Shown: piece by piece, positions 1,348-40,697 of the stretch
How the letters are laid out: each line of letters starts with the position of its first letter
How positions within the stretch are numbered: position 1 is the first letter of the stretch
Source of the DNA: Psammoneis japonica
Lineage: Eukaryota
Direction: 5' to 3'
Length of the DNA: 64,000 nucleotides
NCBI GenBank assembly: GCA_008632985.1
Contig: QPGO01000097.1
Span: 248,001 to 312,000 of the forward strand
Program-made: the position numbers and the translations under genes
Notes under the pieces: generated by a model
Told to the model about the DNA's origin: nothing
The model's input: only the letters and a program-made list of their open reading frames with translations
Databases searched by the model: none

Positions 1348-2217
1348 ATTTTGGGGAAAACAAGCATCTGCTATGTGCTTGGTCCCAAGTTGAAATCACC
1401 CGCGAACTCAATTTACCTCTTGACAAAAACATGCTATGGTACGCAACAAGGTAAGTGATCAAGAATATGAGGACTACGATTGGATACACAAGCCATGGAC
1501 AGGAACCTAGTGGATCGTAGACAGACGGAGACCATTGTTTCCAGTCTCGCTTGGTCTCGCATGGTTTTATGTATTCAAAAAAGCACTCAAAGAAGCACGT
1601 GGGCAGCAGAAGGCCCATGCAAGCTAGAATCCGATTGTCGCGTCGGCCGACATAACATTGTTCTTACTTTGTTCAAATCGATAGCTGAAGTTGGTTGTGC
1701 GCTAATGCGGTTGGACGAGCAAGACAAGATGAACGGAAATTATGGATGCGATGATCTTTATTGTGTTGTGTGCTTTTTCTTCTCTGCACCAAGTCTGCAC
1801 AAGTTGAAAGTTATAAGAAAAGAACTCGACATTCTCAAGTCCCCGGAGCTTCTCCTGCTTGCCACTGCAGAGCTTATGCTTACTTGTGCATATCAAACAC
1901 GTCGGATTTTTGTCATTGAAATTCGCCCCACACAAACTCCACGGTGCATTCTACCTATCCATTATTATAATACCTGAAGAATGGATCACAAATAGCTTGC
2001 GAATAAACCAAAACCACAGAAAAAAGAAATATTATCCAGCCAGACCAACTGAGACACACGACTTCTTTTGATGATGCGAAGCCTGTCATGCGAAAGAGCG
2101 ATCAGAACCCAGAGAACGTGACACCTGTTTTTCTGCGATGTTGGCCATAAATGCGAATTCTCGCCAACGTAGAGATGCGTACAATTCATACCACAAAAAA
2201 AACATAAGGAATCAAAA

Positions 2218-3887
2218 ATGAGCGACGACAGCAACACCCATTCTGAGAGCGACGATAAGTCTCCAGGAGACTCTCCTTTGTCTAACAAGAGGGTAAATAA
2301 CGCAGAGGAAACGGAGGAAGCGTCTTCGGGCGATTCACGAGCTCATGGACGCATTGAAGGAGACTTTTTCGACACTGAAGAGACTTCAAGCGATGAGAAC
2401 ACCATTTCAAAGACGAGGATGATTCTCAGGCCCCCCAAGAGGCCTTCCAAACCTCAGTGCGACAGCGAACCTCCCAAAAAGAGGGTGGCGCATGTGAAGG
2501 GTTCGAATTCGAGGCCCCCTCTTCAAGAGCGAAATGTCAATCGCCTTCAAACGAAGCTCGCTTCTGTCCAAGAGCAGCTGGCCACTGCGATCAAAGAACG
2601 CAAAGAATCTGCCAAGACGTTGGCTGACGCCGAGCGGAAGCTTTCCAAGATGACCGAGCAGCTGTCCGAGAAGAACTTGAAGCTCCTTGGATGCAGGAAG
2701 GATGTGTCGGCATTGACGAAGGCGCTTGGAGCTGAAAGTCACGCGTTTCGCAGCGCGACAAGAGCATCACTGACAAAGAGCGAAAGATCGCCGCAGCTCA
2801 AGTGAAACTTGACGCTGCCGCTGACTCCAAGAAAGAACTCGCACCCAAGCTTCGGACAGTCAATGGAGAGCTCAAAAGAGAAAGCAGAAAGGCTGCCAAG
2901 CTGGAAAAAGCAGCTGGCCAAGTCAGCTTCGCGCTGGGTGCACTGCAGTCAGAAAACAGGCGCCCGAAGCAGTCCATCAAGGACGAGGCTGCAGCAAAGA
3001 GGCAACACAAAGAAAAAATGGCGGAGTTGAAGCTTCAAGAGATCAAGGCAATCTCCAACAAGTGCGCTGAAGAGTGCCAGTTCAAGCGCGATGCTTCAGC
3101 CGCTGCTGCACACACCAAGTCTGCTCATTTGGCAAGCAAGCATCACTTCACCACAGAAGCAAAAGAGAAAGAGCCAAGTGGAAAAGAAACAGAGCGACAG
3201 AGGTGTTTGGAGACTGCACAAAGTGGAATTTCAGTGGCTTCTCAAATGCAATGCCTTGGCTTTGGAAACCAAGGCATTCTCCAAGCGGTGAGCAGCACGT
3301 GTTTGTTTTGTGCACGTGTCACTTTGGTTGCATGTGATGCATGACTTGCTGCTCCTTTTCCTTTTGAGTGCTTTCACTTTGTACAAGGCATTGGCGGATC
3401 GCCAGCGAGCAGCAAACAGTGTGAGTGCCTGTGTCAACTTGCAGTGCAAAGTCTGACTGACGACATTGTGCGTGCAAACTGACTGACATCATTGTGCATG
3501 TTGTGTCTTTTCACGTTACACCAGGCATTGATGGATCGCCAGCAAGAAGCTGGAAGCATTCCACCTCTTGCTGTTGCAACAGACGGACTCCCCAGTGGTT
3601 GGGAGGAAGCCGATGACCCTTCCACGGGGAAGAAGTGTCACCACAATCGGTTGCTCGGAAAAACCAGGTGGACGAGGCCTGTTGTTGTGCCTCCAGCTCC
3701 TTCCAATCCTCCTCCACTGCCACCTCCGCCTGCGCCTCTTCCGCCGCCTCCTGAAGAAAAAGATTCGGGCAAGGAGAGCCATGCCGGCAGTCAGCATGAA
3801 TCGACCTCGCAGGCGCAGCTTCAAGAAAGGTTTCCACATTGGCAAAACAAGTGCAGTGCGATTGTCTTTCTCTTGCAGCAGAATTAG
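2218..3887 (+). pseudogene. Transposon cargo ORF: acidic/basic N-terminus, long coiled coil, WW domain and polyproline tract; frameshifted and hypermutated
   Basis: ORFs 2218-2805 and 2802-3344 are K/E/A-rich coiled-coil-like. Probable introns start at GTGAG ~3288 and ~3421. The WW-like motif LPSGWEEADDPSTGKKCHHNRLLGKTRWTRP (3588-3680) is followed by PPPLPPPPAPLPPPP. Confidence 0.7.
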
Positions 3888-4085
3888 ACATGACAGCACA
3901 GTTGGATGACATTTAGGACACCTTGTTTACATTGCGCACAATCTGCTGTTAAATTGCAACTCCCAATCCATTCTGCAGCTCACTGCTGCCGCAGCAAGTG
4001 GCGCGACGGTGCGACGGTCCGTTTGCAAAAAATTCAACAATGCTGCTGTGTGCTCTGGCTAGAGACAATCCCAAAACCAATGTTG

Positions 4086-5216
4086 CTAACACAAGCAGCT
4101 GCTCTGGCAGCCGCAGAAGATCATGCTCTTGAGCATGAGATCTGTTGTCATTTCATTCAGGATCTGTTGCACACAAAAGATCACCGCGTCCATGTGGGGG
4201 CGTGGTTCGAATGAGCTGACAGTTTTTGGGTGCTGCGTCAGAGTCTGAAAGATGAGCTCTGTTGGATTCAACTCGGGTGAACAAGTGGGAAGGTGCCAAA
4301 CGAGCACATTCACAGGCAAGCCGTCTGGCCCGGGAGTCGTCCACATTGGATCTTGAAGCATGTCGGATTCCGCACCTTTGTGGATGACAGCATTGTCCAA
4401 TGTCAAAACATCTCCACGATTGAACCACCCTTGAACAAGAAACATTTCCACAAATGCCATGAAAGCCGCGCTCGTGCCATTCTCCACTCCAACACTGCAC
4501 TTGATGGGCGCTTTTGTCTCACCCACTCCCGTGCATGCTGTGAGATTGCACCGCTGCCGACAGTCACCATCAACAGCCACATTGTCAGCTGTTCCTGTCA
4601 AAGGATTGACTCTCCCTTTTCTGGAAAAAATGTCAGTTCCTTCCACATGCTTTTCATCTGCAAATTTGAGTCGACGAGGGTCAAACTGTGAGATGAAACG
4701 CACGAACTCAAAGCAATGCACGATGTTCTCGGGTTTGAACTTGTCAAGTGGCACAAGATTGCTCTTTTTGAATGACACCTTGAAATCAAACCGAGAAGCA
4801 AACCATTCTGAAATGAAAGATGGGGAAACCAATTTACCATGTGTCACGAGCAGCTCTTCCACATGGCTCTCATTCGACCTTGAGGGTTGTTGGAAACGAA
4901 GCCACAAAAGGTGGCATTCCTCCTCTGGAGTCAAAGCAATGGAACCAACACCTCTTGCTCACTCTTGACTGCGAGCAATTGTGTCAGGATCAACCACACA
5001 GCCATCCAAATCAACTTCATCCATCACTTTCTTCGCAAAGTTCCGAGAAACACGGCCCAGTCTTGCGACCTCAGCAACCTTTGGCTCCTCGCCTGTGACT
5101 GACGTCAACTTCAGTTCTTCACACACCCTTGCAATCTCAAGCTTCTTCAACACGTCATGTGACTTGCCACGCCAGTAAAATCCACCATTGGCATTCACGT
5201 CAAGCCCCGACGCCAT
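4086..5216 (-). pseudogene. IS630/Tc1-family DDE transposase with one in-frame stop
   Basis: ORFs 4959-5303 and 4086-4934 are in the same frame, separated by a TGA at 4959-4961. N-terminal HTH-like segment (EVARLGRVSRNFAKKV); catalytic motifs FADEKH, LTLDNAVIH and LPTCSPELNPTE. Confidence 0.88.
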
Positions 5217-5722
5217 GCTGCCGAGAATGCAAATGTCAAAAATCCCAGCTGGTGCTTTGCGTCCTCGATGCGTCCTCGATGCGTCCTCGAATCTCAGGCA
5301 CACACCAAATTTCTTTTCAAGTCAGTATGACATGAACAAAGATAAATTGTCTGATGCATTTGTGAAGGGCAGTCTTATCTGTATTGAACGTTTCAGACGG
5401 CATACCTTTACCGCAGACGTCCATTGCTTCTGGTGTCACACTTCCAGTAAATACACGTAGAAAATGTACTGATGTCTACGCACCCCAAATGGGGCTTCGG
5501 GTCGCTTTCGAGGATTTTTAGCGCGCACCGCCCTGGAGGAAATCACGTGAAGCCACCCGCTTCACAGCCGAACCCCATAGAAATTTGCGCGTGTGTCAGT
5601 TGGTCTGGCTGGATAATAAATTGCGTTTGCGTTTTGTCTGCGTGTGCGCCCGCGTGTTGTCACTTTTTCGAACAGGCGCACGTACAGCTTTTCTCTTTTC
5701 TGTGTCCAGTGTTTCATCCACC

Positions 5723-15469: not shown

Positions 15470-16175
15470 TTAGAACCTTAGTTTCTGGAAGAAGTAAGCA
15501 CTGCCAACAGCCTTCTTCTCGCTGGTCACTGCCTTCTGGTTCAAGTAACGATCCTCAAAGATCTTTTTCAAATTCTTCTTGACATCAACTTTGCGATCAG
15601 CATCGATGAGATCGGCTTCATCAACAGCTTTCTTCAAGTCCAAGTCAACAACGTAACGTGTTGGGAAGACGTGACGGACATTGACGTATTTGACGAACGG
15701 TTTCATCGTTCGAGAGCGCTTTTCGACCTTCTTCTTTGACATTGCCTTGGTGACCTTTCGTGGTCCTCGTGCAATACCGGCAATCAAACAGTGCGAGAAA
15801 CGCTTTTCATTTGTTCCATCATCAAACGTCTTCACCACAACTGCCTTCTTTCCAGCGTGACGTCCTGAGAGGACAATCACGACCTTACCACTCTCTGTCA
15901 ACAACAGGTGAGAAACAAAAACTGTGAGCCTTTCGTCCAAAATAACACCCACCGCCACTTGAACGCAATATTCCCATGGTGCAACACGAAAGGTGAGGTA
16001 ATGAGCCGTAGCCGAAGCACACGCTGTGGAGCTGGGGTTGAAGACTCCAGTGCCAGGTCCATCGTTTCATCACCCAACTCGCTCCTTCCGGTTACGCAAA
16101 GCCTAAACAAACGCCTCAACAAGAAGCACCACAGACATATGAAACGAGGTTGTTCAACTCACTAACGATCGCCAT
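15470..16175 (-). CDS. RPL27: 60S ribosomal protein L27 (eL27); exons 16175-16163 and 15894-15470
   Basis: Spliced product reads MAIVKSGKVVIVLSGRHAGKKAVVVK...KPFVKYVN...FFQKLRF. Confidence 0.95.
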
Positions 16176-16525: not shown

Positions 16526-16801
16526 TGACAGGATTTGAACAGGATTTGGGTGCGCGCGAAGTATCGCGCGCTGTTTAGTTTACCGCGCACAGTTTTGTGT
16601 GCTTTAGTTCCGCGCGTTCACGCGCGATGTAGTTTGCTTTCGAGCCACAAGGCTCACAAGAATAACAACAGTAGCCCGATTGTGCCGACTTGCACGTCTT
16701 TCGGCTCCTGCAACGGTCTCTGAGCAGAGACTCATCTGCTGTTTAGACAGCAGCAAGGAGTCATTGTTTGAATTCTTGCCATTTGCCTTCAATTTCTGTC
16801 A
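16526..16801 (+). repeat. 5' LTR
   Basis: Ungapped match to 23356-23631 with 14 mismatches; TG...CA termini. Confidence 0.95.
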
Positions 16802-17740
16802 GATTGACAGTCTTGCTCATTGTCAACCCATTGAGCAACCGCCATCGTCATCGTTGATTTGCCAACGATGCTGTTTCAATCCTGCATGGACCTCCGTGTG
16901 TGTTCTACATACATCGGCAAGTCTGCGCGCATTCAATGCCAGGGCATCGGCAGGAAGTTAACGTCACCGTCAAGTCTCCTTGCCGCTGGACATCTGGGTT
17001 GATTGCACTGCCTTTGATCGCTGAAGACACACATTCAACGGTCACATCCAAGTCTGTCCTTGATCAACATCCCTTGACACACCCATTCCTCGGTCAACGG
17101 TCAAGAACCCCACACATTCAAGGATCTCAGTTGCTGAAGACATGTGCACATGTGCACATCTTCACGGCCAAGAACCTTTGCCCACCCTTCGGACTGCGGT
17201 TTTGCCACCACTCTACAAGCACACTGAGTCCATTGTGCCTGATCTACCCCGGACTGCTGGTGCTCCACAGTTCCACCAGGTCCACGAGGACGACTGTGAG
17301 AGCAAGCAGCCGTGATTGCAGCCTGCATTGGGGCGAGGGTGCTTTCCCGCGTTTGTTCGTTCGTCCACAGCGCCTGACGCCTGCGTCAACTGGCCAGCCT
17401 GATCGGGAAATCCAACCGACGTGAAATGAGAATGGTTCGGGGGTCTTGTCCACCTCTGGTCAGCTCACCTGCAGGGGTTTGCAACCCGCTGCTCCGCTCG
17501 CAAGCAACCCAAAGCGCCGCCAGCTGCGGGTTCGGACGTGCCGGCACAACTCTGCGGACCGGACAGGAAGTTTAGCACTCGACAACGAACGGGATGGCAA
17601 AGCCCGGCGACTTCTGATTTTAAGACAGTTCAAGATTTCAAGTCAAGTCTGTTTCAAGTCAAGTCCATTCCCACCCAAGTTTCGAGTCTGCCTTCGCTTC
17701 CCAACCAGAATTGATTGTCCTGACACCACTTTTGTCTACC

Positions 17741-20700
17741 ATGGTTCTCACTCGTCAGCAACAAACCGATGGTTTCGAGCACGTTGTTGGAACCGTGCTT
17801 GCCCAAGGTGCTGGGAGTCCTCTTTGTTTGGCTTTGGCCCAAGATGGCACGGACTCGCATCAGGAACTGTTCACATTCATGCCGTCCCAAATCGACTCTC
17901 TTGAGTGCGACAACGGCACTGATGTGATCCCTTTGCCCCGTGGTTACAAGAACATGTCAGCAGCACTGGTTGGTCTGTACATTGTCAAAGCACACAAAGG
18001 TCTTGACGTTGCCAACGACTCCTCTTTGTTCACGCATGACGAGTTCCTTGCCTGCCGCCTCAGCCCCGACTGCATGTCTTCTGTGTCCATCGGCAGCTCA
18101 CCCCTTGCACCTCCGCATGTCACCAACCCGACCAAGGCACGCGACCCGGTGCGGGACTTCAAGCGAGGCATCAAGCGTGATCCCACCGCTTTCACGGCTC
18201 TCAAATCCGACAAGCAGTGGCACACTTGGCACACCTCACTTGTGGCACAAGCCCGTGCCCAAGACGTCGAGTGCATTCTAGACTCGTCGTACAAACCGAC
18301 CAGCCCCGAAGACAAACTGCTCTTTGCTGAACAGCAAAAGCACATGTTCGCCGTCTTCGAACGCATCCTTCTCACCGACAAGGGCAAGGCTCTCATTCGC
18401 GAAAATGTGGGGTCTTCTGACGCACAGACCGTCTGCCGCGCCTTGTCTGAGTGCGCGCTTGCCTCCACCCGCGCATCTGTCGAGTCCTCCACCCTGCTCA
18501 CGCACCTCACCACCGCACGTCTTGGTGATGGCACTTGGAAAGGTCCGACCCACGGGTTCATCCTTCATTGGCAAGATCAGTTGCGCAAGTACGAGGCACT
18601 CATCCCGGCCAGTGACCACTTCTCTGAAGGACAGAAGCGCGTCATGCTCGAGAATGCCGTGCACCCTGTCGAGGAACTCCATGCTGTCAAGAACCAAGCT
18701 GATCAGCATCGTACGCAGAGTGGCAAGAGCCTCACATGCGATCAACACTGTGGCTTGCTCCTCTCCGCGGCAGCTCAGTGCGACAGTGCGTTTCAACCCA
18801 AGACGACACCTCGAGCTCCCCGACGCGCCACATGCGCACACGACGTCTGCTCCGAGGAACCGTCCGACGACATGTTCTACGACATTGACAGCGACATTGA
18901 CGTCCTTCAGGCCAATGCCGCCTGCACCCGCGGTCCCAGCCTCACCGGTGACCAATGGAGACGTCTCCCTCCCGACCACCAACGGATCTGGGATTCGTTG
19001 CCCGATTCCTCCAAGGCGATCATCCTTGAGCATTCTCGTCTGCCTCCCCGCAACCCGCGAGCCAGTCACTGCCATGAGTCTGTTACGCCCAACCTTCACG
19101 ACCAACGCCTTGGGAGTGACGGTGATGTCAACTTGTCCAACACGACTCCTGCTGACTCTGGTGACTTCGCTCCAAATGTGGATGCCAATTCGGACAATCC
19201 CATCATGGCGCACCTCACCAAGCGCAAGTCACTGCCACCCGGTGATCTGCAACGTCTGTTGTCTCCTAACCAAACCCCCAATGCCAGTCGACCGGGGCCA
19301 TCCGCCGCTTCCTCTACCCCGCCAGCTTCTGCAGATGACATGGAACTCAACGGCCGCACTCACCGCCGCATTGACAACCACAATGTCATTTGCTCTGCCT
19401 CTGCTCATTGCTCCACACGCACTGGCGCTCTAGTCGATCGTGGGGCCAACGGCGGCATTGCTGGCGACGACGTTCGCGTCATTGCATGCACCTCTCGCCA
19501 AGTCGACGTTCAGGGCATTGATGATCATCAATTGGTGGACATCCCTGTTGTCACCGCTGGTGCCGTCATTGAGACCCAGCGTGGTCCCGTCATCGCCATC
19601 CTCCATCAGTGCGCATGCACGGGCAAGGGCAAGACCATCCATTCCTGCGGCCAGCTCGAATGGCACAAACAGGATGTCAACGATCGCTCTGTCAAGGTGC
19701 CCAACGGCTTGCAACGTGTTGCCACTCCTGATGGCCATGTCATCCCCATTGACATCAAGGCCGGCCTGCCTTGTGTTGCCATGCGACCTTACACTGACGC
19801 CGAATGGGACACCCTGCCCCATGTCATCCTCACCGGTGATGACACATGGGACCCTTCCGTCCTCGATCACTCTGTCACTGACGACGACCAGCGGCACGAC
19901 GCGATCTCTGACCCACAGGACGATCCCACTGCCAACCTGTTTGACGAGTGCGGCAACTGCCGTCATCGTGTCGTTGTCAACGAGACCATCATGTCCGCTT
20001 CCTTTTCTGCCGATCACGCGTCCGCCCTCGATGATCACCTCATTCCGAACAACGACGTGTTCTGCGAGTGTCATCTACATGCGATTGACCCCAAGGGCGA
20101 TGACGTTCCGCCTCCGGAGTGCACTGCACAGCCCAAGGACCCCCCCTTCGAGTCTCTTCAGCCTTGCTTTGGCTTCCCACCTGCCGATGCGGTCCGTCGT
20201 ACTTTTGACTGCACCACGCAGTGCGCCCGCATGCCCGCCGGCACACACCTTAGGAAGGCCTGCAAATCACCCAACCCCGCCCTTAATGTGCACCGCCGCA
20301 ACGAGCCTGTCGCCACTGACACCGTTTGTGCCGACACCCTGGCCGTCGACTCTGGTTGCACCAGCGCCCAACTGTTTGTTGGCACCGAGTCTGCCGTCAC
20401 TGACGTCTGCGGCACTGAGACGGACAAAGAGTTTGTCAACACACTCGAGGATCAGATCCGTGAACGTGGTGCCCCATCCAAACTCATTAGCAGCCGTGCT
20501 CAAGTTGAGATCAGCAACAAAGTGCTCGGGATCCTACGCGCCCTCTTCATCTCCAGCTGGCAAAGTGAGCCTCACCAGCAACACCAAAACTTTGCCGAGC
20601 GTCGACACCAGACCGTGAAGCGCATGGCGAACACTGTCATGGATCGTTTTGGTTCGCCCGCCCACACATGGCTGCTGGCGCTCATGTGCGTGTGCTTCAC

Positions 20701-23408
20701 ACTCAACCACACAGCGTCCCCACGTCTCCACTGGCGCACGCCCCTCGAGACTCTCACTGGCTCCACCCCGGACATCAGCCCATTGCTTCGCTTTCACTGG
20801 TGGGAACCCATGTGCTTCCACCTCGATGATCCGATTGGCCGTCCGAATCCCGTGAGTTGCGTGGACGCTTCGTTGGCATTGCTGAGCACGTCGGCCACCA
20901 GATGACCTTCAAGATTCTATCTGACGAGACTCAGAAGATCCTCTGCCGGTCCAACGTCCGCTCCGCTGCCACCGATCCTGCCGTTCGAAACCTGCGTCTT
21001 GATCCTCCTGATGGGGAGCCACCTGAACCCATCATCAAATCTCGCCATGACGACAACCCGTCGATTCTCCTGATGGGGAGATCAGGACACCCAAGATGCC
21101 AGTTTTTGATCCGCAAGACATCATTGGACGTACCTTCCTCATGCAGCCACAAGAGGACGGACAACGCCACAGAGCTCGCACCGTCAAGGCCGTCGAAGAC
21201 CACGAATGGAAAGTGAACGGCAATCCCGAGCTCACTAAGTTCGTCTGCTCTGTCAACAATGACGAATGCGAGGAAGTCCTTGCCTGCAATGACATCATGA
21301 ATCACATTGAGCAAGAAGACGAAGACACTGCCATTTGGAAATTTCGACGCATCGTGTCACACGAAGGACCTCTGAAGCCTCACGACCCAACCTGGAAAGG
21401 CTCAAGCTACAACATCATGCTTGAATGGGAAAGTGGGGAGATCACGTCCAAGCCTCTTGCCATCATCGCCAAGGACGACCCCGTCACCTGTGCCATCTAC
21501 GCACGAGAGAACGGACTCCTCGACACGGATGGCTGGAAACGGTTCCGCACCATCGCGAGGCGCCAAAAGAAGCTATTTCGCATGGCCAACCAAGCCAAGC
21601 TTCGCTCCTTCCGCACTGCACCTCGCCACAAGTACGGATGCGAAGTTCCCCGGAACTGCAAACACGCCATGTCACTAGACGAACGCAACGGCAACCGCAA
21701 GTGGGGAGACGCAACTAATCTTGAGATGGACCAACTCGACGAACAGGAAGTCTTCCATGACTGCGGGCCCTTCAAGTCTTCCACTCCTCCTGCGGGACAC
21801 AAGAAGATCCGAGTGCACCCAGTGTGCGACGTGAAACACGACGGTCGCCACAAGGCACGACTCGTAGCCGACGGGCACCTCACGGACGTACCTGTCGACA
21901 GTGTCTGCTCCGGAGCAGTCTCCCTCCGTGGCCTTCGGCTGATGATTTTCCTGGCCGAACTCAACGAGTTGGAGACATGGGCCACCGACATTGGCAATGC
22001 CTGCCTTGAAGCCACCACCAAGGAGAAGCTTTACATTGTAGCCGGACCCGAATTTGGCAAACTCGAAGGACACATCCTTGTCATCCACAAGGCACTGCAT
22101 GGACTGCGCAGCTCCGGTCTCCGCTGGCACGAGCGCTTCGCCGACTGCCTGCGAGCTGAAGGCTTCTTCCCCTGCCGCGCCGAACCCGACATTTGGATGC
22201 GCAGGAACGGCGACCACTGTGAACACATTGCCGTTTATGTGGATGACCTCGCCATTGCCATGAAGGACCCTCAATCTTTCGTCGACACTCTCACGGAAAA
22301 GCACAAGTTCAAGCTCAAGGGCACGGGACCCATTGAGTTCCATCTGGGTTGCGACTTTTCCCGGGATCCCGACGGAACCTTGTGCCTGTCTCCGCGCAAG
22401 TACATCGAGCGCATGGTCGACAGCTGCGCCCGACTGTTTGGGGAGAAACCTGCCACCAACGCCCTGTCACCTCTGGAGAAGGGTGACCACCCCGAACTGG
22501 ACACTTCCGAACTGCTGGGACCCGATGGCATTCACAAGTTCCAGTCTCTTGTTGGTTCACTCCAATGGGCAGTGTCCCTTGGTCGAATTGACATTGCCAC
22601 GGCCATCATGTCACTCTCTAGCTTCCGAGCTGCGCCCCGTCAAGGCCACTTGGATCGTGCCAAATGCGTCTGTGGGCACCTCTCCAAGATGCGACACGGT
22701 GCTCTCCGCGTTCGCACGGAAGAGCCCGACCATTCGGATCTCCCTGCTCCGGCCTGTGAATGGATGCATTCCGTGCATGGCGAAGCAGAAGAGATGATCC
22801 CGAAGGACGCTCCACCGCCCCTTGGCAAGTTCGTCACTGCCACCCACTACGTCGATGCAAACTTGTGCCATTGCATGCTCACCGGACGCTCTGTCATGGG
22901 AATGCTCCACTTCCTCAACAAATTCCCGGCTGATTGGTTCTCTAAGAAGCAAGCCACCGTGGAGACTGCGACCTGCAGGTCTGAATTTGTTGCCGCAAGG
23001 ACTTGTGTTGAGCAGATTGTCGACCTGCGCATCACCCTGCGCTGCCTTGGCGTCCCGGTCCGCAATGTCAGTTACATGTTCGGTGACAACAAGTCGGTTG
23101 TAGACAGTGCCACCATCCCGCACTCCAAGTTACACAAGCGACACACCGCACTGTCGTTCCACAGTGTGCGTGAGGCAATTGCCTCTGGTTGCCTTGAGTT
23201 CCACTTCATCGAAGGCTCCCGCAACCCTGCTGACATTCTCAGCAAGCATTGGGGTCACTCCCAAATCTGGGACCTTCTCCGCCCCCTCATGTTCTGGAAC
23301 TTCATTCCATCCGAAGTCGAATCTGTTTCTGTGACTCCTCAAGCAAACTGGGGAGTGACAGGATTTGAACAGGATTTGGGTGCGCGCGAAGCATCGCGCG
23401 CTGTTTAG
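17741..23408 (+). pseudogene. Copia gag-pol polyprotein with two frameshifts (~20830 and ~21070)
   Basis: Protease ALVDRGANGG; integrase VATDT...SEPHQQHQNFAERR; RT KHDGRHKARLVA, DIGNACL, AVYVDDL; RNase H YVDAN, SEFVAAR, FGDNKSV, NPADILSK. Confidence 0.93.
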
Positions 23409-23631
23409 TTTACCGCGCACAGTTTTGTGTGCTTTAGTTCTGCGCGTTCGCGCGCGATGTAGTTTGCTTTCGAGCCACAAGGCTCACAAGAATAACAACA
23501 GCAGCCCGATTGTACCGACTTGCACGTCTTTCGGCTCCTGTGACGGTCTCTGAGCGGAGACTCATCTGCTGTTTAGACAGCAGTGAGGAGTTGTTGTTTG
23601 AATTCTTGCCACCTGCCTTCAATTTCTGTCA
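23356..23631 (+). repeat. 3' LTR
   Basis: Ungapped match to 16526-16801; preceded by the polypurine tract. Confidence 0.95.
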
Positions 23632-23636
23632 ATCCT

Positions 23637-26270
23637 TGAGCAAGTCAGTCACAGTGATTGAGGCGGACCCAAACAAAGACACTCAAAAGCAAGTTCTTGC
23701 TGTGCTCTAACTGTTTCTCTTTCAATCATTGTCCCTGTTCTAAAAACATGTTTTGCATTGTGCTCCATCATCAGATGGATGACGAGAAACAAGAGGTTGT
23801 TGATGTGCCCGCTCGGATGTCATCAGATCAAAAATTAGATTGGGTGCAAACGTGCTCTGCCATTGTGGATGGTGATAGATGGTCCATGTCTCTCTTCACA
23901 CTTTGCATGGATGGAGTCATTCAAAAGCATTTGTGGCAACATTGAACGTGAGCAGAACATGCTGCGTGATGATGCATGCAAACATCCTTTTGTGACCACC
24001 AACTCTTGTTGTGCCATTGTCTCTTTTGTGGCTGTGCTCATTTGTCACTTGTTTTGTCTCATTCTGATTTCTGCAGCTGCCGTCATGGCATCATTCTCTG
24101 GGTGGCCAAACAAGTTGATTGCTCTTGCTGTTTGTGATTGCCAGCAGACAGTCAGAGAGTGGAAAGGCCAGGAGCTCAAAATGAAGACATGGCGATTCAA
24201 TGCAATGAAGAACGTTTCTTTTCTCAAGATTTCTAGATGCGGCGTCTCTGCTGCAGAACAGCTCTCACTTTTTGGTGAAAGAAAGAGCACCTTCGTGAAA
24301 CAATGACAGTTGCAAATTCAAATGGCAGCCTGCCAGCATCATTTCTTCCCTTGCCGCTGTTTCTGGAACATGCAGCAATGAGCAGCAGTTGAGTCGCTCT
24401 GTCCCACTCTTCTTCCACAGCTGGTGGCATTCTAGCCCAAAATCATCTGCAAGAGTGGCTGGTGGCATTTGACCCATGATGAAAATGTGCAGCACAACTC
24501 ATGACTCTCACAAATGCATCATTGCCACCAGCACTCTTGGATGTTGCGGGGGCTCCATTTGCATGAGTGCATGTGACATTCAACCTTCAAAAACAAATGG
24601 ATCACACAAGATTCATTGAAAATGCAAAAAACAGGTCTCACAATTCACACGGCTGCTGTGGCATCACAAGGCAGCTTTGCAAGCATCGGAGCTTGTGGCA
24701 GGCATTTCAGAGCTCATGAGCACTTGGTGCTGAGCAAACTGAAAACAGCTGGAACAAGCAACACAAGTGGCAAACCACAACAACTGACAAACACCAAACA
24801 TGCCCCCTTTCTTGCGACCAACAAGCATGAGAGCAAAAGAAGATGGGAGAGAAATTTTCCAACAGAGGCTCTATTGCAATCCAAGAAAGAAGGCTTGCCA
24901 TGTGGAAAGACATTTCCCTGAAGCTGTCAATCTTGTTCAATTTGTGTCAAATGATTTTCTGCTCCAAGTGAACATCCTTGTTGTTGGGAATGCAACTTGC
25001 TGCTGCTGGCCATCACACATTGCCTTGCAGTCAACAACACATTGCTGCAGCTGCGGCGCAGAGCTCTCAACACAGAGAGCTGCAGCACTTTCTGGGTTTG
25101 GCCCTTGCATTCGTTGGTGCACTGGGGTTCTGCAATTTGCCAGGCATGGCTGACAAGGAAGCCAGCGGTTCAAGAGTGGTGAACCCAATGTGTTGTGTGA
25201 CTGTGGCAATGCTGCTCTCACAAGAACTGTTGGCCCAGCAGGAGAGAAACTGGCCCAATGGACAAGTTGACAAACTTGAGGAGAGCATTTTCAGTGTTTT
25301 TCATCTGTTTGTGGGTTTTGGAATGTGCTGCAGATGAGCGATGAATGTCAGCATCAAAGTGGAAAACCAGAGCACCTGGTGGTCTTGTTGCCCTTGCAAG
25401 TCTCACAACAGCACTGCTTGGAGTTGTAAGATGCTCAATCAAGTGGAAGAGGAAACATGAATGAAGTTGAGGAGGCTGTCTGCGCAAGCTTCATCAAACC
25501 ATTGGCTGTGGGGCAGCAGAGTGGCTGCTGCAATTCATTCTGTTCTTGCCATCAATGTTGTTGCACATCCATTCTGGAGCTGGCAAAGGTTCTTCACTTC
25601 TTGCAGAGTTCATGCAAGAAGACGCCAGAGAAAACAGCTCTGCAGAGTGAAAGGAAGCATGGCTGTGACATCTGTCAGTGAAGGGGTCACAAGTCACAAG
25701 TGGTCGAGTGTGTTGTCCCTTTTGGACCAAAGTGATTTCAGCTTTGTAGATGGATTCAAAAGCTGTCCAAAAAGATGAAATTGACTGTGTTGGAGTTGCG
25801 CCCTCAGATTGCAAAAAACAAAAGCATGAAAAAGAGGAGAGGAGCACCCCAATGCAGCAGCAAAATGAGGAGCCAGGTTCTTGTGACACCATGTCGACAA
25901 TGACAACTCACACATGCGTTTGCTTTGTGAACATTCCAGACAGCAGAGTTTGCATCCAAAAATTTCCCACTCCTTGCAGCCACTGCTTGTGCACAACCCC
26001 ACTCTCTGTCTGCAGACAGTGTTGGCACAATGTGAGCAGACGATGGAGAGAAAGACTCTGCAGCTGAAAGGAGCCTCTGTCCCTCTCCCTCTCTCAGAAG
26101 AGAGGCCTCATCTAGAGAGTCTCCAGCTGTTGGCAGTGGCTCGATTAGAGAGAGAGGGTAGGAGAGAGCAGCTCTCTTATTTACTTGGTGCCACCGCAGC
26201 CACTGCCAGCTGCTCTCCAGCAGCTGTAGCAAGGTGGCAGAGCTGCAAACAATAGTTGTTGTTAGTTTGG
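23637..26270. repeat. Decayed repeat/TE relic, depleted of TpA and CpG; continues the 16380-16525 segment split by the Copia insertion
   Basis: Near absence of TA and CG, excess of TG/CA, and only spurious C/H/Q-rich ORFs. Boundaries are approximate. Confidence 0.7.
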
Positions 26271-28522: not shown

Positions 28523-29407
28523 GTCGCGAAGTCGAACGCCATCGAGCATCGAGGACCCGGACGTCGTACCGGTACGGTATGTTCTGGAGATGCGCGTTCC
28601 GCTAAAAAGAAATTTTCAACGTGGTCGAACTTTGTCCGTCATTTGAGAGACATGCTGCATTGGAGTGCATGGATCACTGTCATGACCATGCATGCGCGAC
28701 GATGTTTGGCTCAGTGACTGCAGATGGGGTCACAGCTGGTCAAACGCCAGTTTGTGAGAATCTGTGGGGCTCTGGAAGTTGGCAGCTGTAGAGAGTTTGT
28801 CGCTGGCGCAAGAAGATGAGCCCTCCAAAACCCTCTGTGGGGGTCGCCAGCAATGCCCCAAGGAGCCTGCCCATCTTTGCCAAACACCCCATTGACAACC
28901 CTCCAACAGGATGAGTGCTTTGGCTGTCCATCTGAAGCAAGTGGGGTCAATGCATTGGGCCCTGCATGGCTCCGTTGCGTTTTCCTGCAAATGCAAGGAG
29001 TGCCAACCCAGGCACAATTTGACCAACCTCCATTGTTTCAATGGAACACTGTGTGATTCCCGCAGCACCTGCAACAACCCTGTGCAAGCTGAAGCACCAG
29101 TGCAAAGTTCCTGAATTCACCTTTGTTTGTCCTCCACAAAAAATGCAGATTGCTTCCCCAGCTCTCCAACTTCTGCCTCCACCTGCCGGTCTTGCATGTG
29201 CACCCTCTTTTCAGTGAAACTGAATTCTGTGGAATTTTCATCTGCTCTTTTTCTCCCACATTGCTCCAGCTCAACTTGGTGGCAACTGAGATTTCAACTT
29301 GTGTCTCTCAAGATGTGCGTGCTTCTTTCTTCCTGCAGTGCAATTTTTGTTGTTGAAACAGCTTCTGTTGCCTCTTCAACATCCACCACAACAAACAAAT
29401 TTGGGGT

Positions 29408-29595
29408 GCAGCCAGTGGTTGTTCTGAGTTGGTGAAGCCTGCTGATGACTCTGCTGCCAGGGCTCATCTCGTGGCTCTCACACATTGGTCAGTTGGTCGG
29501 GCAGCCCAGTGGTTGTTCTGAGTTGGTGGAGTTTGCTGATGACGACTCTGCTGCCAGGGCTCATCCATGGCCCTCACATTGGTCAGTTGGTCGGG
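29408..29595. repeat. ~94-bp tandem duplication; a shorter motif GCTGCCAGGGTTCATCCCATGG recurs to ~29955
   Basis: The unit CCAGTGGTTGTTCTGAGTTGGTG...CACATTGGTCAGTTGGTCGGG occurs twice. Confidence 0.8.
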
Positions 29596-32500
29596 GGTGC
29601 AGGTCTCTTGGTGTGGACAACAGTCACATGGCTGCCAGGGTTCATCCCATCACCTCCATTTTTGTCAGGGGTGCAGCGAGCAGTTGTTTGGAGTGCAAGA
29701 GCACACTGATGATGCCGCCAGGATTCATCCCATGGCCCCTGGGTCAGGGGTGCAGCTGACTTGTCACAGCTTCCCTTGACTTGTGTTGTCATTGATCATT
29801 CCCACTGCCCCAATTGTTGCGTGGGTGCAATGGTCAGATCCTCTGACATTGTTGGATTTGAAGCTCCCAGAGATTGTGCTGCCAGGTTTCATCCCATGGC
29901 CCTCACCTTTGGCAAGGGTGTGCACAGCTGATGCCACTGCCAGGGTTCATCCAGTGCCCCCACGCAGTTGAACATGGATTTTGTTGGAGAAGGTGCACTG
30001 AGTGGAACCTTGTGTTTGGCAAGCTGCCCCACTGTTGCTTCCCAGTGTTCCAACTTGGTCCCTTGCACCTTGGGGGATGCATTCTGTGCTGCCTTTCTAG
30101 CTTGACTGTCCAACATTCCAACCACAGTTTTCAGTGCATCTGGTCTGACAATGTCTTTGCCACTCCCTTCCACTGTTTTTTGTCAGCTCTGAGTCAAGCT
30201 CCACTTCCTGGGCATCATCTGATTTTTGTCTGTGTCAGACCATTCTTCTGCTTCTTCTGCTTCCAAATCTCTCCCTGATGGCAGCACAAGTCAACAAGTG
30301 GTTGCTGGTCCCAGTCTGCCTCTGTCTTCCACACCAGCTCCTTTTGTCATTTTTCCATGACTCATGCCTCCATTTTGATTCAGTGCCCAGCAAATGGGGA
30401 GGACTTGAGAATGTTGAATGTTGGCATGGTGTGCAAAGAAGATTCCTGCTGGAAGATGAGTGCATCAAAATCATGCAATGTTGGGAAAGCCAGCCAGGAG
30501 TGATGGCCACACATCAGCTGTGCTCACTTTGCATTGCCTGGTCTTGATTCCATCCTTGATCATTTGATTTCAAGGCTCTTTCCAAGAAAAATGGAGAGCT
30601 GCTTGCCAAAGATCTGGTTCAGCCAGACAGCTCTTCACATGACTTGTCATTGTCCAAGTTTGCTTCTTCCTCATCTGTTGCCAAGCATCAATTGCTGGGC
30701 ATGCACAAGGACTGTGGCAGCACTTTGAGTCCATGTGCCAGACGGAAACATTCTTGCAATGGCACCAGCAGTCATGCATGCAAAGCGAAAGATCCCATTG
30801 ATCTGCCAGCCTTTGTTGGTTGCTCAAACCACATCAAACAAGATCAAAATCTTTGTTGGTTGTCGGACAAAGAATTTCTGTTCAATCACAATGACCCCAA
30901 CGACATTGACACCAACAAAGCAATGAGATGCACCCTGGATGCTGCATGCTGTCTGTTCATCTTGCCAACACAAGCATTGCTCATCCATTGGGAAGCCATT
31001 TTGACAAGCAAAGCAGCTCAAAGAAAACCAAAAAGCAGTTGTGTCACCATCTCGGGCTGCCTTTGGCGGTGCTTGCAATCCACAATGCACTGCAGCCATG
31101 GGTTCCATGCATCAAGAGCATGATGAACAGATTGTGGAGGAGAACATTCATTCACCACAAGTCAACATGGTCTGGGAGGTTTGCACTCTTTGCCCAAGTC
31201 TTGTTAAACCGCCGGCACATGGGTCACTTCAGAAGTGGTGGTGCTTTGGCAGACAAGTGCATCCCCAATTTTTAAGTCATCAAGATGAAGTGCAATCTTG
31301 ATCCTCATGGTCATTTGCCATCCTCTGTCAATGTCATTGATGAGTTGACAAAATTTGCCAGTGCTCCCTTTTGTCCCTTGGTGCTGTGTCTTTGTTGCAT
31401 CCTTGGGCACTCGTGTCTCCCCAGCCTTGTTGTTTGTTTCCTCATGCACAGTGGTTGTGGAGCAACAGAAATTGAAACCCACTCACCTCGTGGAGTTCCA
31501 TGTTGGCTGCTTGGTTGCACGCACCGTCAGGGAGATCAACCACAAGCTTCAACAAAAGAGAAGAGGAATTTTCCTCCACCACAATGATGCTCACATCATC
31601 ATCCACTGTTCCTTGCAACCAGCAAAGTGTGGCACAAAGAGCACTCCTCAATTTCTGATGTGATTCTGTCAGCACAAGATGCAAAGGAAGTGGGACATTC
31701 CCACCACTTGCAAGTTGCAAATGGGACAGTGCCATGCCGTGTGTTTCACCGTTGCCCCTTTCATTCTGAGCTTCAAAGATCTTGGCATCAACGATCTAAT
31801 GGGATTGATGGTGACCATTGGATTTGCACTTTTCCATTTCATCAACCTCGCCCATGCCAACAAAAACAGCAAGGCAATGAAACAGTGGACACTTGACCGA
31901 CAAAAGTGTTCTGGATGAAATGGTGGAGACCATCACAAAGAACCTTTGTGCTGCCTTTGCAAATCTCTATGGAGAAGTCATTGCTTGCCATGGAGGGGGA
32001 AACTGAATTTGTGAAGCCTTTTGCAGTGCAAAATCCAGTGCTTCCAATGGCAACAAATTCTTTGAGTTGCATCAGCCAGAATCTTTTTGTTGCCAAAGAA
32101 TTGTTTGTTCATGTCATTGTGACCTGTGCAAGTCACAAAGGAAAGCATCATGCTGCTGAGGTGAAAGGCAGCCCACATCAGAAACTTCCTTGCAGGGGAG
32201 ATTGTGCACCCATGGCAGACTTGAAAAAAATTGTGCACCTGAAGAACATCATGGTGCTGGTCATGTTGGCAACTTCAGTGATCAGCTCCTCAACAAGCTT
32301 CTGAGTTCCTGCAGAGGAACAACGTTCCAGTTTATCCCCACCCCAGATTTTGAGGGATGTGCTTATAGAGGGGCACACCATTGGGTCCAAACCCCATCAA
32401 CTTCAAAAGGAAAGGAACCACATCAGGTGGACAGAGATGCAGAGGGGTGACTTGTTGTGAAGGAAGGCAAAGGCTCCTGACAAGGATGACTTGCACAAGT

Positions 32501-34559
32501 TTGGAAGGTGCCTCTCCAACACACAGCTGACAATGTGGAAGGAAACATTGTGACAAACCACAGAAGGCAGAGGTGTGCTGTCTGAAGTGGAATGAATTGG
32601 GGGCAGCTTTGCCACCTTGAGTCAGATGAACCACAGCCCCATGCATTGAAAAAGTGTGTGGTGTTGTGATGTGTGGCAGGAAGGCAGAATCATGAGCAAA
32701 TGAGTGACAGACCATCATGTTTGAATTGACAAGTCTGCATCAGTGGTGATGAATTAGACCAGCAGTCACAGTGCACACCAGGAACAAGGGTGCACAAGAT
32801 GGCAGGATCCATCACAAGGCTGCCAGGCACATGTCTGCACACAAATGCAGCAGCACATGGCACTGTGATTGCAGTGCATCCCATGGACAAAAATCTTGCT
32901 TCTCTGGAAACCAGCAAAACACACAACTGCACCATGCTGTGGTCAGAAATGATCAGACAAGTGAGTGGACTGCACCAAAGCCTGACAAGACAAAAGAAGC
33001 CCAAGCAACACAGTGCAAACTGCTCAGACAACTTACATTGAACTCATCAGATGATGAAATGAGCAGGTGCAACAGGGAGCAGTGCAAACAGACATGCTGG
33101 TGTTGAGACAGTGGTGCAGAAATCAAATGAGGGGTTGTTTGTGACCAGTGGGGCTCTCACCACCTCCACTTCAGATGAAGGGGAAGATGCAACAAGGGAC
33201 AAATGAAAAAAGACAACACAACAACAAAAGAGCAACAGGGACAGAATTGGTTTGGAGAGCTGCTGCAACAAGAACACACTTCTCTGTGAGCACAAGTTTC
33301 TGCTGAATGAAAAGGCCATGAGACACCATGATGGCAGGGCAGCAATGATTTTTCATCTGAACTCAACATGCCACAAGTCAACAGGGTGCAGATGTGGGAC
33401 ATGTCAAAGAAGGACAAGGTGCAAAGACATGCAACAAGAAAAAGGAACAATGCCTGTGGTGGAGAACTCAAAAAGGAGCTTTTCCACAATTGTCATTGTG
33501 AGGGCAATGGCAGAGCATTGACAACAAACATGTGTTGTGGCTCACAAACAACAAGATCAGCTGGATCATGCAAGGAACAGATGTTGTTCTTCTTGGGAGG
33601 ACATGCTGGAGGGTGGGAATGACACAAAGGCACACAACCACTGCACGTGACACTTCCCACCCATTGTTGTTGGGAAGACCATGTGGAAGCATTGGCTTCA
33701 ATCAAGATGTTGCTTGAACAAGCTGGCATCATCAAGCAATGAGGCACTTGGTCTGTTGGTGTTAGAAAACAATTGGAGTGAGTGGGTGTGCGTGCATGGA
33801 AAATCTGGGGAAGAGCTCAAGGACAAGAGACTTGTTCCTGCCATGAAGCACAGCACTGGGAAAGGAAAACAAGCAAGAAGAAACCAAGGTTGAAACAAAC
33901 AAGGACTTGACAGGCCAAGAATTTTGGGGAAGGAGATGTGCAAGAAGAGATTGAGCAAGGATGCAGAGCAATGTGATGAAATGAGATCCCAGGAATTCTG
34001 GAAATGCATCAATGGCACAGAAGCCATGACGGAGAAGATGGGCAATGAGATTGCAACAAAGGACAATGACGACATCAATGAAGAGGAGTTGTGTTTGTGG
34101 AAGGCTTGCAAATGGCAGTGCAGTTGTCATTTGGTGACAATCTACAATGAAAGGCAAATGAAAGGTGAGACAAGAAACAGCCGGTTGATGATGCCGAAGG
34201 AAATCAAGCAGCAAAAGCATGCACCAAAAAGATGAAACAAGAGCAAACACTGTAAAATGGGGTTTTACATCAAAATTGTTTGTGTGGTGTGACAACCAGA
34301 AATGACAAGCACAGCTGTGCTGTGAACAATGACATGGCCATGTGAACAATTTGGCGTGCTGATGTGGCAAGCCCAAACTGAAATGAGCCAGGATCCACAT
34401 TGCAATGCAGGTCAAACTCATGTGGAAAATTGTGAAAAATTCAGGTTTGACATGCATGATTTGATTGAGCCCAAGCCGAATTGTTCTTCCCTCTGATGCC
34501 CCCCCCCCCCCAGCATCATTTGTGAGTGTGCCCATTCTTGTGCCCATCTGTTGCTTTCC

Positions 34560-35720
34560 ACAAGAACATTCTTGGCTGGTCAAGAGCACTCCTGGCCAGT
34601 CAAAAATCAAGAGCCAGCTGGTCATTTCTTGAACATCAAGTGATTTTGGGAGATTCTGGAAGTTGGTGATTGTCACAGGAAAGTTTGTCACTGGCGCAAG
34701 CCACTCAAAAAGAAATGCCTCCCAAAGCCATTTGTGAGGGTTGCCAGGCATGTCCCAAAAAGCTTGAGAATCTTTGCCAAACACCCTCTGCTGACATCAA
34801 TTGCATCAAAGTGTGTGCTTTGACTGAACCTCATGTTTCAAGCAGTTTGGCAACTTTGTGTGCACTGCATTTTGTTGTCAACTGCTGCTCTGAAGAGGGC
34901 ACAGGGAAGTGCTGGCCACAGCTCTGTGCACACTCTCTGTGGGGGACATCATGGCCCACTGCAGTGCAGCTGCACCATGTGGCACAGCAGCTCTGGCAAA
35001 GTTGTTGTTGTTGTTGTTGTTGTTGCCCATCTGTTGCTTCTCACAAGAACATTCCTGAAAGGCTCTTGTGACCAGTCAAAAATGAAGGGTGGTCAAGAAC
35101 ATTCTTAGCCAGTCCAGTGCTCTTGACTGGCTGGCCAAGAATGTTCTTGACTGCTCAAAGAGAATTCAGATTTTTGGAAGTTGGTGATTGTGCAGAGTTT
35201 GTTGCCAATGCAAGGCACTCAACAAGTCTCTCAAATTCCTTTGTGGGGATCACCGGCAATGCCCCAAGAAGCATTGGCGCATCTTTGCCAAACACGACCC
35301 TGCTGCTGACAACCCCCCAACAAGATGTGTGCTTTGACTGAGCCTCATTCCAGCCAGTCTTGCAGGCTTGCACATGCTGCACTTCAGTGTCAACTGCTCC
35401 AAAGGCAATGCTGACTGCAGCTCCATGCCTGTTCTCCAAAGGAGACATGACCCACCACACATTGTGCGCAACTTCACCTTGTGGCACAGCAGCTCTTGCA
35501 ATGTTGTTGTCACTGTAAAGCTGGGCAGGAGTTTGTAAAGCTGGACAGGAGTTGTGTCTTTTTGGCTTGTTGCTTCTGTGCTGCCTTTGAGGCATCCAAG
35601 AATGCACTGTGTGTCAGCATGCATGCATCTTTTTTTGGGCCTGTCTGTTGTTTCACACAAGAACATTCTTGGCCATTCTTGACTTTTGACTGGTTGGTTA
35701 AGAACATTTTTGACCATCAA
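34560..35720. repeat. Diverged ~500-600-bp tandem units with palindromic subrepeats; a related copy lies at ~28770-28930
   Basis: CACAAGAACATTC at ~34560, ~35042 and ~35657. TGGAAGTTGG...ATCTTTGCCAAACAC...GTGCTTTG at ~28773, ~34657 and ~35175. Confidence 0.75.
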
Positions 35721-36949
35721 GAGAGTCAATTGCTCCACAACTGTCAAACTTTGATGCTGCCATTTCAATGCCAGTGCACAATTTGTGCAAAAACATGGTT
35801 GAAAAGGTTGACAATCAACCAGTCTTTGAAGCACAGCTGAGCATGCAAGTGATGTCCATGCAAGGGCAGTTTTCCCAGTTTTTCTTGTCAAAGAATGAAG
35901 ACAGAACACCACTCCTTTTGTGGGAGCTTTTCACACAATTGAGAGCACAGACACACTTTCAAAATGCCTCCCAAGTGCATTTGAAAACAACAGTGTGAAA
36001 AAAAGCCTCCTGCTGAAGATTTCTCTTTTGTTGTCCACATTCTCCAAGCATCAAGGATGATGGTCATTGTCACTTCAAAACAAACAGATCTGAGGAGAGA
36101 AGCAACAAAAAATTGTGGGGAAAATCCACTCAGATTTGCTGGCACAAAATGCACAGTGACAGAAAAAGAGCAAACATGTGGCACACCTGACCTCAGACCT
36201 CAGCACATGTGTTTCTCACCCAGGTCAATCTGCATGTCCAAGGAAAGCAACAAGAGAAAAAACAGAGCAGTCAGGTGGACAAAGAACAAGAGGACCATTT
36301 ACAAACACATTGTTGCCCCTTGCTTCACCATGCTTTGCTTTGGCAACAGCTTGCACTTTTTCTTCTTCATCTGCAGTCCCAGCCATCCTTGACATGTCAA
36401 TGTTCTCATCTCAGTGGCCTCTTTGGATGATGATGCTGAACCCCCCAGCATGAGGAAAACTTGGCATGTGCTTGCCATCGAGTTCAGGAACTTTTTCTTG
36501 CTGCCTTGCTTGAGTCAATGGAGGTCACTGAAACCCATGCAGAGCATCTGTGTTGGGATTTCATCGCTTGCTGACTCCTGGCACATGCTCAGTCTTGCCA
36601 ATGTCCCTTGAACTCACTGCACAGATTTTGCAAACACATTTCCACTGCTGTTGTTGTCATGTTGAACAGGTGCAGAAGCTAAAAAGTGAGCACAAGACTT
36701 TCAATTCAACAGGATTTGCAAACACAAATTCACCACATCATCAACAACCATCAGCGCATCATTTGCTGCAATGTTGTCTGTGTCTGTCCTGCACAAACCA
36801 CCTCATTGCACCCCAATGTTCCAACACACTCCTTTGCATGAGCTGTCAATTGATTGGGCCTTGTGCACAATGGCCACAGGAGGAGGATGCTTGGAAACCA
36901 TGCCATCCAATGCCACTTTGACCACTCTGCAATTCCCATGGCTTGTGTC

Positions 36950-37620
36950 ACCCAACTTTGCCAACAAGTGATCATCATTGTTGAGCACAGGACAGTCCTT
37001 TTCACATGCCCAATCTTGTTGCATTTCCAGCATTGATCTGCTTCTTCTCATTTTGCACAAAGCTTGTGCCCTCAGGTTTCATGTTGCACCCACATGTGTC
37101 TGACAGCTGCAGCAGTGCCTCCTTGGCCAAATCAGGACAATTGTCAATCCCCAGTGTGAGCTGCATGTGCAGGTTTTCAAGACATGCCAACATTCCTTGG
37201 CTCTTTCCATTGGCAGTGCCACTGACAACTTGTTTCCTTTCTTTCTTCTGGGTGTCGCCAGCATCCTTGCTGCACCCATCTTTTTTCTTGGCAATTTCTT
37301 CCAGGATGAGTCTGCTGCAGGACCCTTCCACCATCTCAACAATGCTTGTGAACCAACTGCAACAATCTTGAAGCACCTCTCCTCATCTTGATGAATGAGC
37401 ACCAACTGCTTCAAAGCTTTGGCAGCCTGGACATGCGAGCATTTGTGTTGAACAAGATTGCTGACTTGAGTTCTTTCAATGGTGCCACCATGTCCCACTC
37501 CTTTGCAACCTTCTCAAACTCTGTCACTTGCTCAACCTTGCGAAGGATGGCTTTCATGCAATGCCCCATCATCACACCAAGCTGCCCTTTGCTTCTGCAT
37601 CTCACAGATCCTCTCCTGCT
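36950..37620 (-). pseudogene. Remnant of a diatom Copia-type gag
   Basis: KGQLGVMMGHC...KVEQVTEFEKV, FTSIVEMVEGS and LENLHMQLTLGIDNCPDLAKEALLQL resemble, from my recollection of the family, CoDi gag motifs (LG.DNYP) with Y changed to C. Confidence 0.55.
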
Positions 37621-40600: not shown

Positions 40601-40697
40601 GAGTGCTGCCTTTGCAGTTGCAGTTTTGCTCAACCACTCAAGTGTTTTGTGACAACAAACCAGATGCACTGCTTGGCGCAGGTCAACAAATGCACAT

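Follow-up and report, generated by a model that had tools for sequence, protein, structure and literature searches.

In the body of a cut-and-paste DNA transposon of the diatom Psammoneis japonica the dinucleotide TA is almost absent, and the question raised by this locus is whether it was lost by mutation of the inserted element in the chromosome, and what selects the DNA in which this happens. The stretch analysed, called the window here, comprises 64,000 nucleotides of contig QPGO01000097.1 (C97:248001-312000) of the 91.4-Mb assembly GCA_008632985.1, and all genome searches cover that assembly. The element, at 2032-5616, is of the IS630/Tc1/mariner type, with a TA target duplication, terminal inverted repeats (TIRs), a DDE transposase and a convergent gene for a WW-domain protein. 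The reading we propose combines mutation of TpA in place in the DNA, which the sequence comparisons below make very probable, with targeting that depends on the chromatin domain and not on the identity of the sequence, for which there is a good case; jointly we give the two a probability of roughly two in three.

TA loss in the transposon and its direction

The body of the element (2301-5170) holds 9 TA where 112 are expected from the gene-bearing DNA of the window (Poisson p = 2e-36), and 4201-4500 contains 0 TA and 14 CG, as counted in the original prediction, which had been made from the letters of the window. That prediction extended the erasure over the whole of 2032-5616; it stands for the body, whereas the two ends (2032-2300 and 5171-5616) retain TA. 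Across the window the observed/expected ratio (o/e) of TA is about 0.3-0.9 in the gene-bearing parts, and the blocks 2301-5350, 16751-26150 and 28601-42250 are nearly TA-free. The parts of the element, compared with a second copy on C32, are as follows.

2030..2031, no strand: left TA target-site duplication, intact; directly outside it the window copy and the C32 copy have different flanking sequence
2032..2060, plus strand: left TIR, 29 nt with 2 mismatches and a 21-nt perfect core (inverted-pair search)
2032..2300, no strand: spared left end, 10 TA retained, 1 difference from C32 in 269 columns
2218..3887, plus strand: second gene, with a coiled-coil region, a WW domain and a proline-rich tail
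2301..5170, no strand: TA-erased body, 9 TA remaining, holding 128 of the 136 substitutions relative to C32
3588..3680, plus strand: WW domain (Pfam PF00397, E=5.9e-05, 23.5 bits, under the cut-off of 26.9)
4086..5216, minus strand: DDE transposase, 376 codons plus stop (Pfam PF13358, E=1.4e-08, above cut-off)
5171..5616, no strand: right end, largely spared, where the transposase begins and its upstream region lies; 14 TA in common with C32, 7 differences
5588..5616, minus strand: right TIR (inverted-pair search and TIR pattern)
5617..5618, no strand: right TA target-site duplication, intact

The copy on C32 is full-length and 95% identical, with flanks that differ from those in the window. 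Over 3574 aligned columns the two copies show 136 substitutions, 131 of them transitions and 5 transversions. The transitions fall into 27 CA/TG doublets (54 positions), 29 single differences of TA against CA or TG, 34 of CG against TG or CA, and 14 others. In 27 of the 29 singles the TA is the one in C32, so erosion has gone further in the window copy. The TpA loss of the original prediction is borne out; CG is not fully spared, given the 34 CG differences among the 136. A more distant pair of sister copies, on C2 and C14 (62-65% protein identity to the window element), has a similar make-up: its 178 substitutions include 27 doublets, 36 singles of the TA kind, 39 of the CG kind and 19 transversions. 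The intergenic stretch 3861-4100 was considered as a further spared part and rejected, since its 240 columns contain 6 doublets and 7 TA singles.

As a CA/TG doublet can be derived from either TA or CG, polarity was tested with 20 outside transposase homologs. Nine of their columns are at least half Tyr; column 445 was dropped, being Met in all four genome copies and in the two closest homologs. At 7 of the remaining 8 the window transposase reads Cys or His (TGY or CAY codons), and the lone Tyr sits in the spared end. It is the only Tyr in 377 codons, in comparison with 5-21 in the homologs. All four copies have the identical Cys or His at three of the Tyr columns, which may be inherited or come from strand preference. 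In the minus-strand transposase frame the window has ACA at 4260-4262 where C32 has ATA, which bears out the earlier reading of ELNPTE as a mutated ELNPIE; the outside homologs have Ile at this column in 19 of 20 cases and Val in one. Of the nine amino-acid-changing TA singles in the transposase seven fit TA as the ancestral state, this Ile included, the exceptions being 4957 and 4282. Among the ten transposase doublets, six score better as TA and three as CG; the tenth lies where 7/20 homologs end and is probably a former TAG stop. The probable former stop codon of the transposase is at 4104-4106, CAG in the window and TGG in C32.

For the WW domain it had been proposed that the triplet TGT CAC CAC (CHH, 3636-3644) replaces YYY. 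C32 reads HHC here, so that the first and third codons differ as TG/CA doublets and support TA; codon 2 begins with CA in both, and its Tyr follows only from WW domains generally and from a distant relative on C121. This relative (L036:3600-4530) has a normal TA content; in it the reading frame of the 5' transposase part runs on into two WW domains, whose triplets are intact (YYY and YYH). It is partial and 76% identical, with no TIR found nearby, and may have escaped erasure as a chimeric or domesticated gene. As a reference for polarising at the DNA level it is weak (TA at 3/7 informative sites).

The same question was put to a second TA-targeting DNA-transposon family (5 copies, 2856 usable columns; a truncated sixth copy on C110 is outside these site counts and inside the strand and end counts given below). 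TA, CA and TG occur together at 13 sites and TA with CG at 1, so TA decay and CG decay are separate routes into CA/TG; invariant TA number 2 and invariant CG 62. As to the transposase family at large, TA o/e among the best 80 of 322 metagenome relatives is 0.27-0.99 (median 0.63), only 1 of these 80 being below 0.3, in contrast to 0.04 in the window transposase and 0-0.36 in all 13 long transposase matches of this genome. These relatives were picked by intact motifs, which under-samples erased copies in other species; since they keep TA, the family is not TA-poor by nature. Together with the Ile of C32 and of the homologs, this disposes of a family consensus that is itself TA-free. The most TA-poor outside relatives, on the metagenome contigs L128 (o/e 0.27, CA/TG 1.48) and L194 (0.30), may bear marks of the process in other hosts.

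In structure the element shares with IS630/Tc1/mariner the TA duplication, the TIRs, a DDE_3 transposase and dispersed copies with differing flanks; the DD45E spacing of its catalytic triad (D187, D274, E320) and the convergent coiled-coil/WW gene set it apart. The 21-bp TIR of the original prediction is the perfect core of an inverted pair of 31 nt (2030-2060 and 5588-5618, 94% identity) which includes the TA duplication, and the TIR pattern has at least 9 matches in the genome, with 0 for the reversed-pattern control. The window transposase has an internal stop at 4961 (TGA, a CGA/TGA difference between the copies), and the second gene is disrupted by gaps of 1 nt and 39 nt relative to C32, with probable introns around 3288-3524. 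A full-length family copy with intact TA was sought and none was present among at least 11 DNA, 22 protein and 9 TIR matches in the genome. Two copy pairs and two other families stand in for a multi-copy consensus of the exact family. Outside the element, a 24-nt inverted pair (159-182 and 2006-2029, 92%) flanks a flavoprotein gene (PPC-decarboxylase-like) and stops exactly at the left TA.

Place, footprint and sequence context of the change

The ends of the elements indicate where the change takes place. At 19 ends, from 10 copies of two families, the TA duplication and the first three TIR letters were scored against the outer flank. Ends with 15-40 TA per 500 bp of flank are intact in 13/13 cases, and those with 0-9 are altered in 6/6 (p = 0.004, calculated on the 17 ends with full flanks; two altered-end flanks are about 400 bp). 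As the duplication is part of no RNA or reverse-transcribed intermediate, the change occurs in the chromosome. Changes fall equally on both strands, with 140 retained-TA changes to TG and 145 to CA (per-copy counts, which are not independent). The argument that a cut-and-paste element offers no reverse-transcription step is thereby upheld, both by this symmetry and by the mutation of a duplication that arises at insertion.

Within the window/C32 pair 4/28 TA sites are changed in the ends and 52/60 in the body (p=5e-11, with doublets counted as TA and hence some overstatement); for CG sites the values are 1/39 and 33/144 (p=0.002). The footprint of TA loss fades some 250-450 bp short of normal gene-bearing DNA and coincides with CpG decay. 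The TIR, which is the most exactly repeated part of the element, is spared or erased together with its flank, so its fate appears to follow neighbourhood and not repetition. Repeats or silenced chromatin had both been named as possible targets; the chromatin domain is favoured by the sparing of repeated ends beside normal DNA and by a high-copy miniature inverted-repeat transposable element (MITE) that is mostly intact.

This MITE, of 390 bp, lies at L045:4817-5208 (C96), nested in a copy of the second family, and has 1564 candidate matches, with copies 96-98% identical; these young copies, mostly lying in erased DNA, offer a convenient clock for the process. Its starting state is known and TA-rich, and the forward spectrum was taken from the 20 closest of 40 scored matches. 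T>C is found at 47/1079 TpA positions and at 5/3260 other T, with 2/1380 at TT; C>T is found at 9/1120 CpG and 3/920 CpA. Of 27 TA sites 14 are changed at least once. Each copy retains 21-30 TA, and 19/20 have at least one erased flank. Copies this rich in TA beside erased flanks indicate a gradual process that predates these insertions, yet still reaches them.

With respect to context, the process is strictly specific for TpA, with a preference for TAY (a pyrimidine after the adenine). Among sites with TAY on one strand and TAR on the other, the changed adenine is in TAY only at 42 and in TAR only at 9 (p=3e-6), both being present at 18 more. Among TA surviving in erased DNA the value for YTAR is 1.58 (0.61 in the host) and that for RTAY 0.25 (1.37 in the host). 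AA is no target: in the second family TT>CT occurs at 15/339 and CT>TT at 8/260.

In the window and the loci retrieved from the genome, erasure is confined to mobile-DNA blocks as against gene-bearing DNA. Other features of these regions may be listed here. A Copia-type retrotransposon (16526-23631, RVT_2) has long terminal repeats (LTRs) of 276 nt with 14 differences, CA/TG doublets and TA singles being represented three times each. The blocks 23632-26100 (TA/CG o/e 0.05/0.23) and 28600-42250 (0.04/0.13) have lost both dinucleotides and contain decayed internal repeats; they are probably older mobile DNA. On C12 (L067, L068) a 4-kb repeat pair of 96.8% identity, 26 kb apart, has an erased core that is sharply bounded in each copy. 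The gene for ribosomal protein L27e (15473-16066) has a TA o/e of 0.22 with normal CG, which is probably due to codon usage and cautions against screens based on TA only.

Candidate mechanism and rival explanations

The mechanism that we propose begins after insertion, when a host process rewrites A:T to G:C at TpA in the chromosome, on either strand, gradually and to near saturation. Its footprint would be the silenced, cytosine-methylated chromatin over mobile DNA, so that an element of any class lying inside would be affected. A zinc deaminase of the TadA/ADAT type may be brought to this chromatin and deaminate adenine to hypoxanthine, with G fixed by replication; this would be the weakest step, and for the chemistry as such we lean slightly towards an adenine deaminase. 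The expected consequences would be replacement of Tyr by Cys or His, of Ile by Thr, Val or Met and of Leu by Pro or Ser, together with lost stop codons, damaged TIRs and removal of TA insertion sites. The genome has one TadA-like (C38), one ADAT2-like (C26) and two ADAT1/ADAR-like genes, names that are given by motif and Pfam only. C5 cytosine methyltransferases have 27 matches in the genome, several intact and several in erased DNA. The latter include copies on C297 and C301 (L082-L084, L088) with TA o/e of 0-0.09, which are possibly element-borne enzymes; at least 5 TA-normal genes lie elsewhere. In the available text on diatom methylation, DNMT5 is described to methylate and repress young transposons, and DNMT4 to be related, with moderate support, to fungal RID (PMC9998398).

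Several observations weigh against this reading. The evidence for the chromatin-targeting step consists of sequence footprints, and TA and CG loss are uncoupled in degree (TA/CG o/e 0.18/0.91 in the Copia element and 0.04/0.13 in the block 28600-42000), for which rates or age may be responsible. The three transposase doublets that fit CG better and the single at 4282, which may be a TA gain, mean that counts taking all doublets as TA overstate TA loss. Family copies share ancestry, so that per-copy counts are not independent, and two MITE variants common to 9 and 5 of the 20 copies are probably inherited. The deaminase genes are of the kinds expected for tRNA editing and none is tied to the process; searches of the genome (5 and 4 matches) gave no expanded or unusual deaminase family. 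The tRNA site of TadA, U-A-C, resembles TAY, a resemblance for which a literature check gave no confirmation.

The same in-place mutation of TpA could be triggered by sequence duplication, as in repeat-induced point mutation (RIP), possibly through the RID-related DNMT4. Such a 'reverse RIP' would agree with the low TA in 13/13 long transposase matches, with the TA retained by the partial C121 relative at 76% identity and with the presence of intact C5-methyltransferase genes, but the chemistry of these enzymes is C>T and not A>G, and the ends, where the copies agree best, are erased only beside an erased flank. In addition, the MITE with 1564 candidates keeps most of its TA in the 20 closest copies, with the reservation that 390 bp may be below a pairing threshold, and the mutated viral region of Bigelowiella natans is described as single-copy in the available preprint text (bioRxiv 10.64898/2026.01.13.699255). 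We consider a duplication trigger unlikely, notwithstanding the moderate grouping of diatom DNMT4 with RID (PMC9998398, available text). A modified base at TpA as the mutagen is likewise improbable. It would be oxidised thymine (5-hydroxymethyluracil, 5hmU, or 5-formyluracil, 5fU, pairing with G) or N6-methyladenine later deaminated, placed symmetrically on both strands to mark silenced DNA. Like CpG, TpA is its own complement, the strand symmetry suits a mark on two strands, and 5hmU is described, in the text available, to silence dinoflagellate transposons (PMC11572971). A search for Tet/JBP was without a match in the genome and in every control genome alike and is uninformative, and the slow change of TpA in MITE copies within erased DNA suits either view.

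Polymerase eta mutates at the WA motif, and error-prone repair of this kind, following repair of deaminated 5-methylcytosine (5mC), could spread A>G through methylated DNA. The common footprint of TA and CG changes in the copy pair would fit, as would the 11 TT/CT differences between window and C32, 8 of them with T in the less-mutated copy; yet the excess of AA>AG is absent both in the second family and in the MITE (2/1380 against 47/1079 at TpA), and TA is erased where CG is intact, which makes such repair a rather remote explanation. Hardly any weight can be given to the view that no TA was lost, with CpG decay making the doublets, a RIP-like gain of TA from CA the singles, and codon choice the low TA, or with base-calling errors behind it all. 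CG decay is real (34/136 differences, 3/10 doublets), but the conserved Tyr, Ile and Leu and the stop codon resolve to TA, and the three-state TA/CA/TG sites, the forward spectrum of the MITE and the relatives that keep TA refute this view as well. Concerning base calling, contigs assembled separately from a public run contain the variants of C32 at a depth above 95, the depth within the element being about double that of the flanks; they argue against an artefact, the run being possibly from the source sample, of one study and with library type unrecorded. ADAR-like RNA editing fixed by reverse transcription has virtually no claim. Two A_deamin genes are present in the genome, and ADAR is stated to prefer a 5' U in the preprint text available (bioRxiv 10.64898/2026.01.13.699255); against this, the element is a DDE transposon with TIRs, both strands are equally affected, and the mutated target-site duplications refute it.

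Outside these subjects, the silicon-transporter family has 24 matches in the genome (best E 2e-208), which marks it as that of a diatom, including a single open frame of 1511 aa at C38:226311-230342 which holds three silicon-transporter units.

Relation to known systems and significance

RIP, which in ascomycetes depends on RID, changes C:G to T:A at CpA and so makes TpA and stops. The diatom process resembles it in consisting of dinucleotide-specific transitions on both strands that wreck chromosomal mobile elements of any class, and differs in its opposite polarity, TpA and stops being removed, and in largely sparing identical ends and a high-copy MITE; unlike RIP, a process acting at TpA would be unable to make a stop from a sense codon. 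APOBEC and ADAR have RNA or reverse-transcription intermediates as their substrates, and their signatures lie on one strand. Context-specific deamination directed against selfish elements would be common to both, the diatom process being strand-symmetric and post-insertion. Deamination of 5mC in DNMT5-methylated diatom transposons (PMC9998398, available text) is likewise limited to mobile DNA, yields CA and TG and occurs here alongside; its target is CpG, it cannot convert Tyr codons or TA duplications to TG or CA, and in the MITE it is about 5x slower per site than the change at TpA.

The closest precedent is that of Bigelowiella natans, for which the available text of a preprint reports 231 mutations, nearly all of which turn TpA into TpG or CpA, from two viral regions integrated in the genome (Mettrop et al., bioRxiv 10.64898/2026.01.13.699255). 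The de novo rate was raised about 1000-fold in some lines only, DDE-endonuclease and reverse-transcriptase domains were enriched among TpA-depleted coding sequences, and an ADAT-type deaminase was proposed by the authors, not shown (same preprint text). According to this text both systems involve the same changes on both strands, at the DNA level, and only in silent mobile or foreign DNA. Bigelowiella is a rhizarian in which the changes arise de novo in viral regions with a TpA rho of 0.45, whereas here a stramenopile is concerned, near saturation (o/e 0.04), with copy pairs of DNA transposons. The TAY preference, the spared edges and the CpG decay are absent from the main text of the preprint, and the word 'diatom' does not appear in its available text. 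Our literature search, which left most subscription journals uncovered, matched only this preprint and no diatom report of the TpA signature. The general process is therefore already described; the inference for DNA transposons was foreshadowed by composition in B. natans and is demonstrated here in another lineage by comparing copies.

A TpA signature in a second, distant lineage of eukaryotes would make the Bigelowiella result general and not peculiar to two viral inserts. The use of a DNA transposon rules out RNA editing with reverse transcription, leaving chromosomal DNA as the substrate. As the ancestral TA is a minority state, majority consensus, dating and annotation of mobile elements are biased in such genomes. 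The TAY motif and the sharp spared edges are testable handles for the enzyme and the chromatin mark, and gene knockout is feasible in diatoms. We suggest, tentatively and as the less probable outcome, that diatoms, and perhaps the stramenopiles, alveolates and Rhizaria (SAR) at large, have a natural DNA adenine deaminase which silenced chromatin attracts and which removes TAY from mobile elements of all classes. If true, this would be a genome defence of opposite polarity to RIP, one that would also deprive Tc1/mariner elements of their TA landing sites, and it would provide, from nature, an enzyme for adenine base editing of chromosomal DNA.

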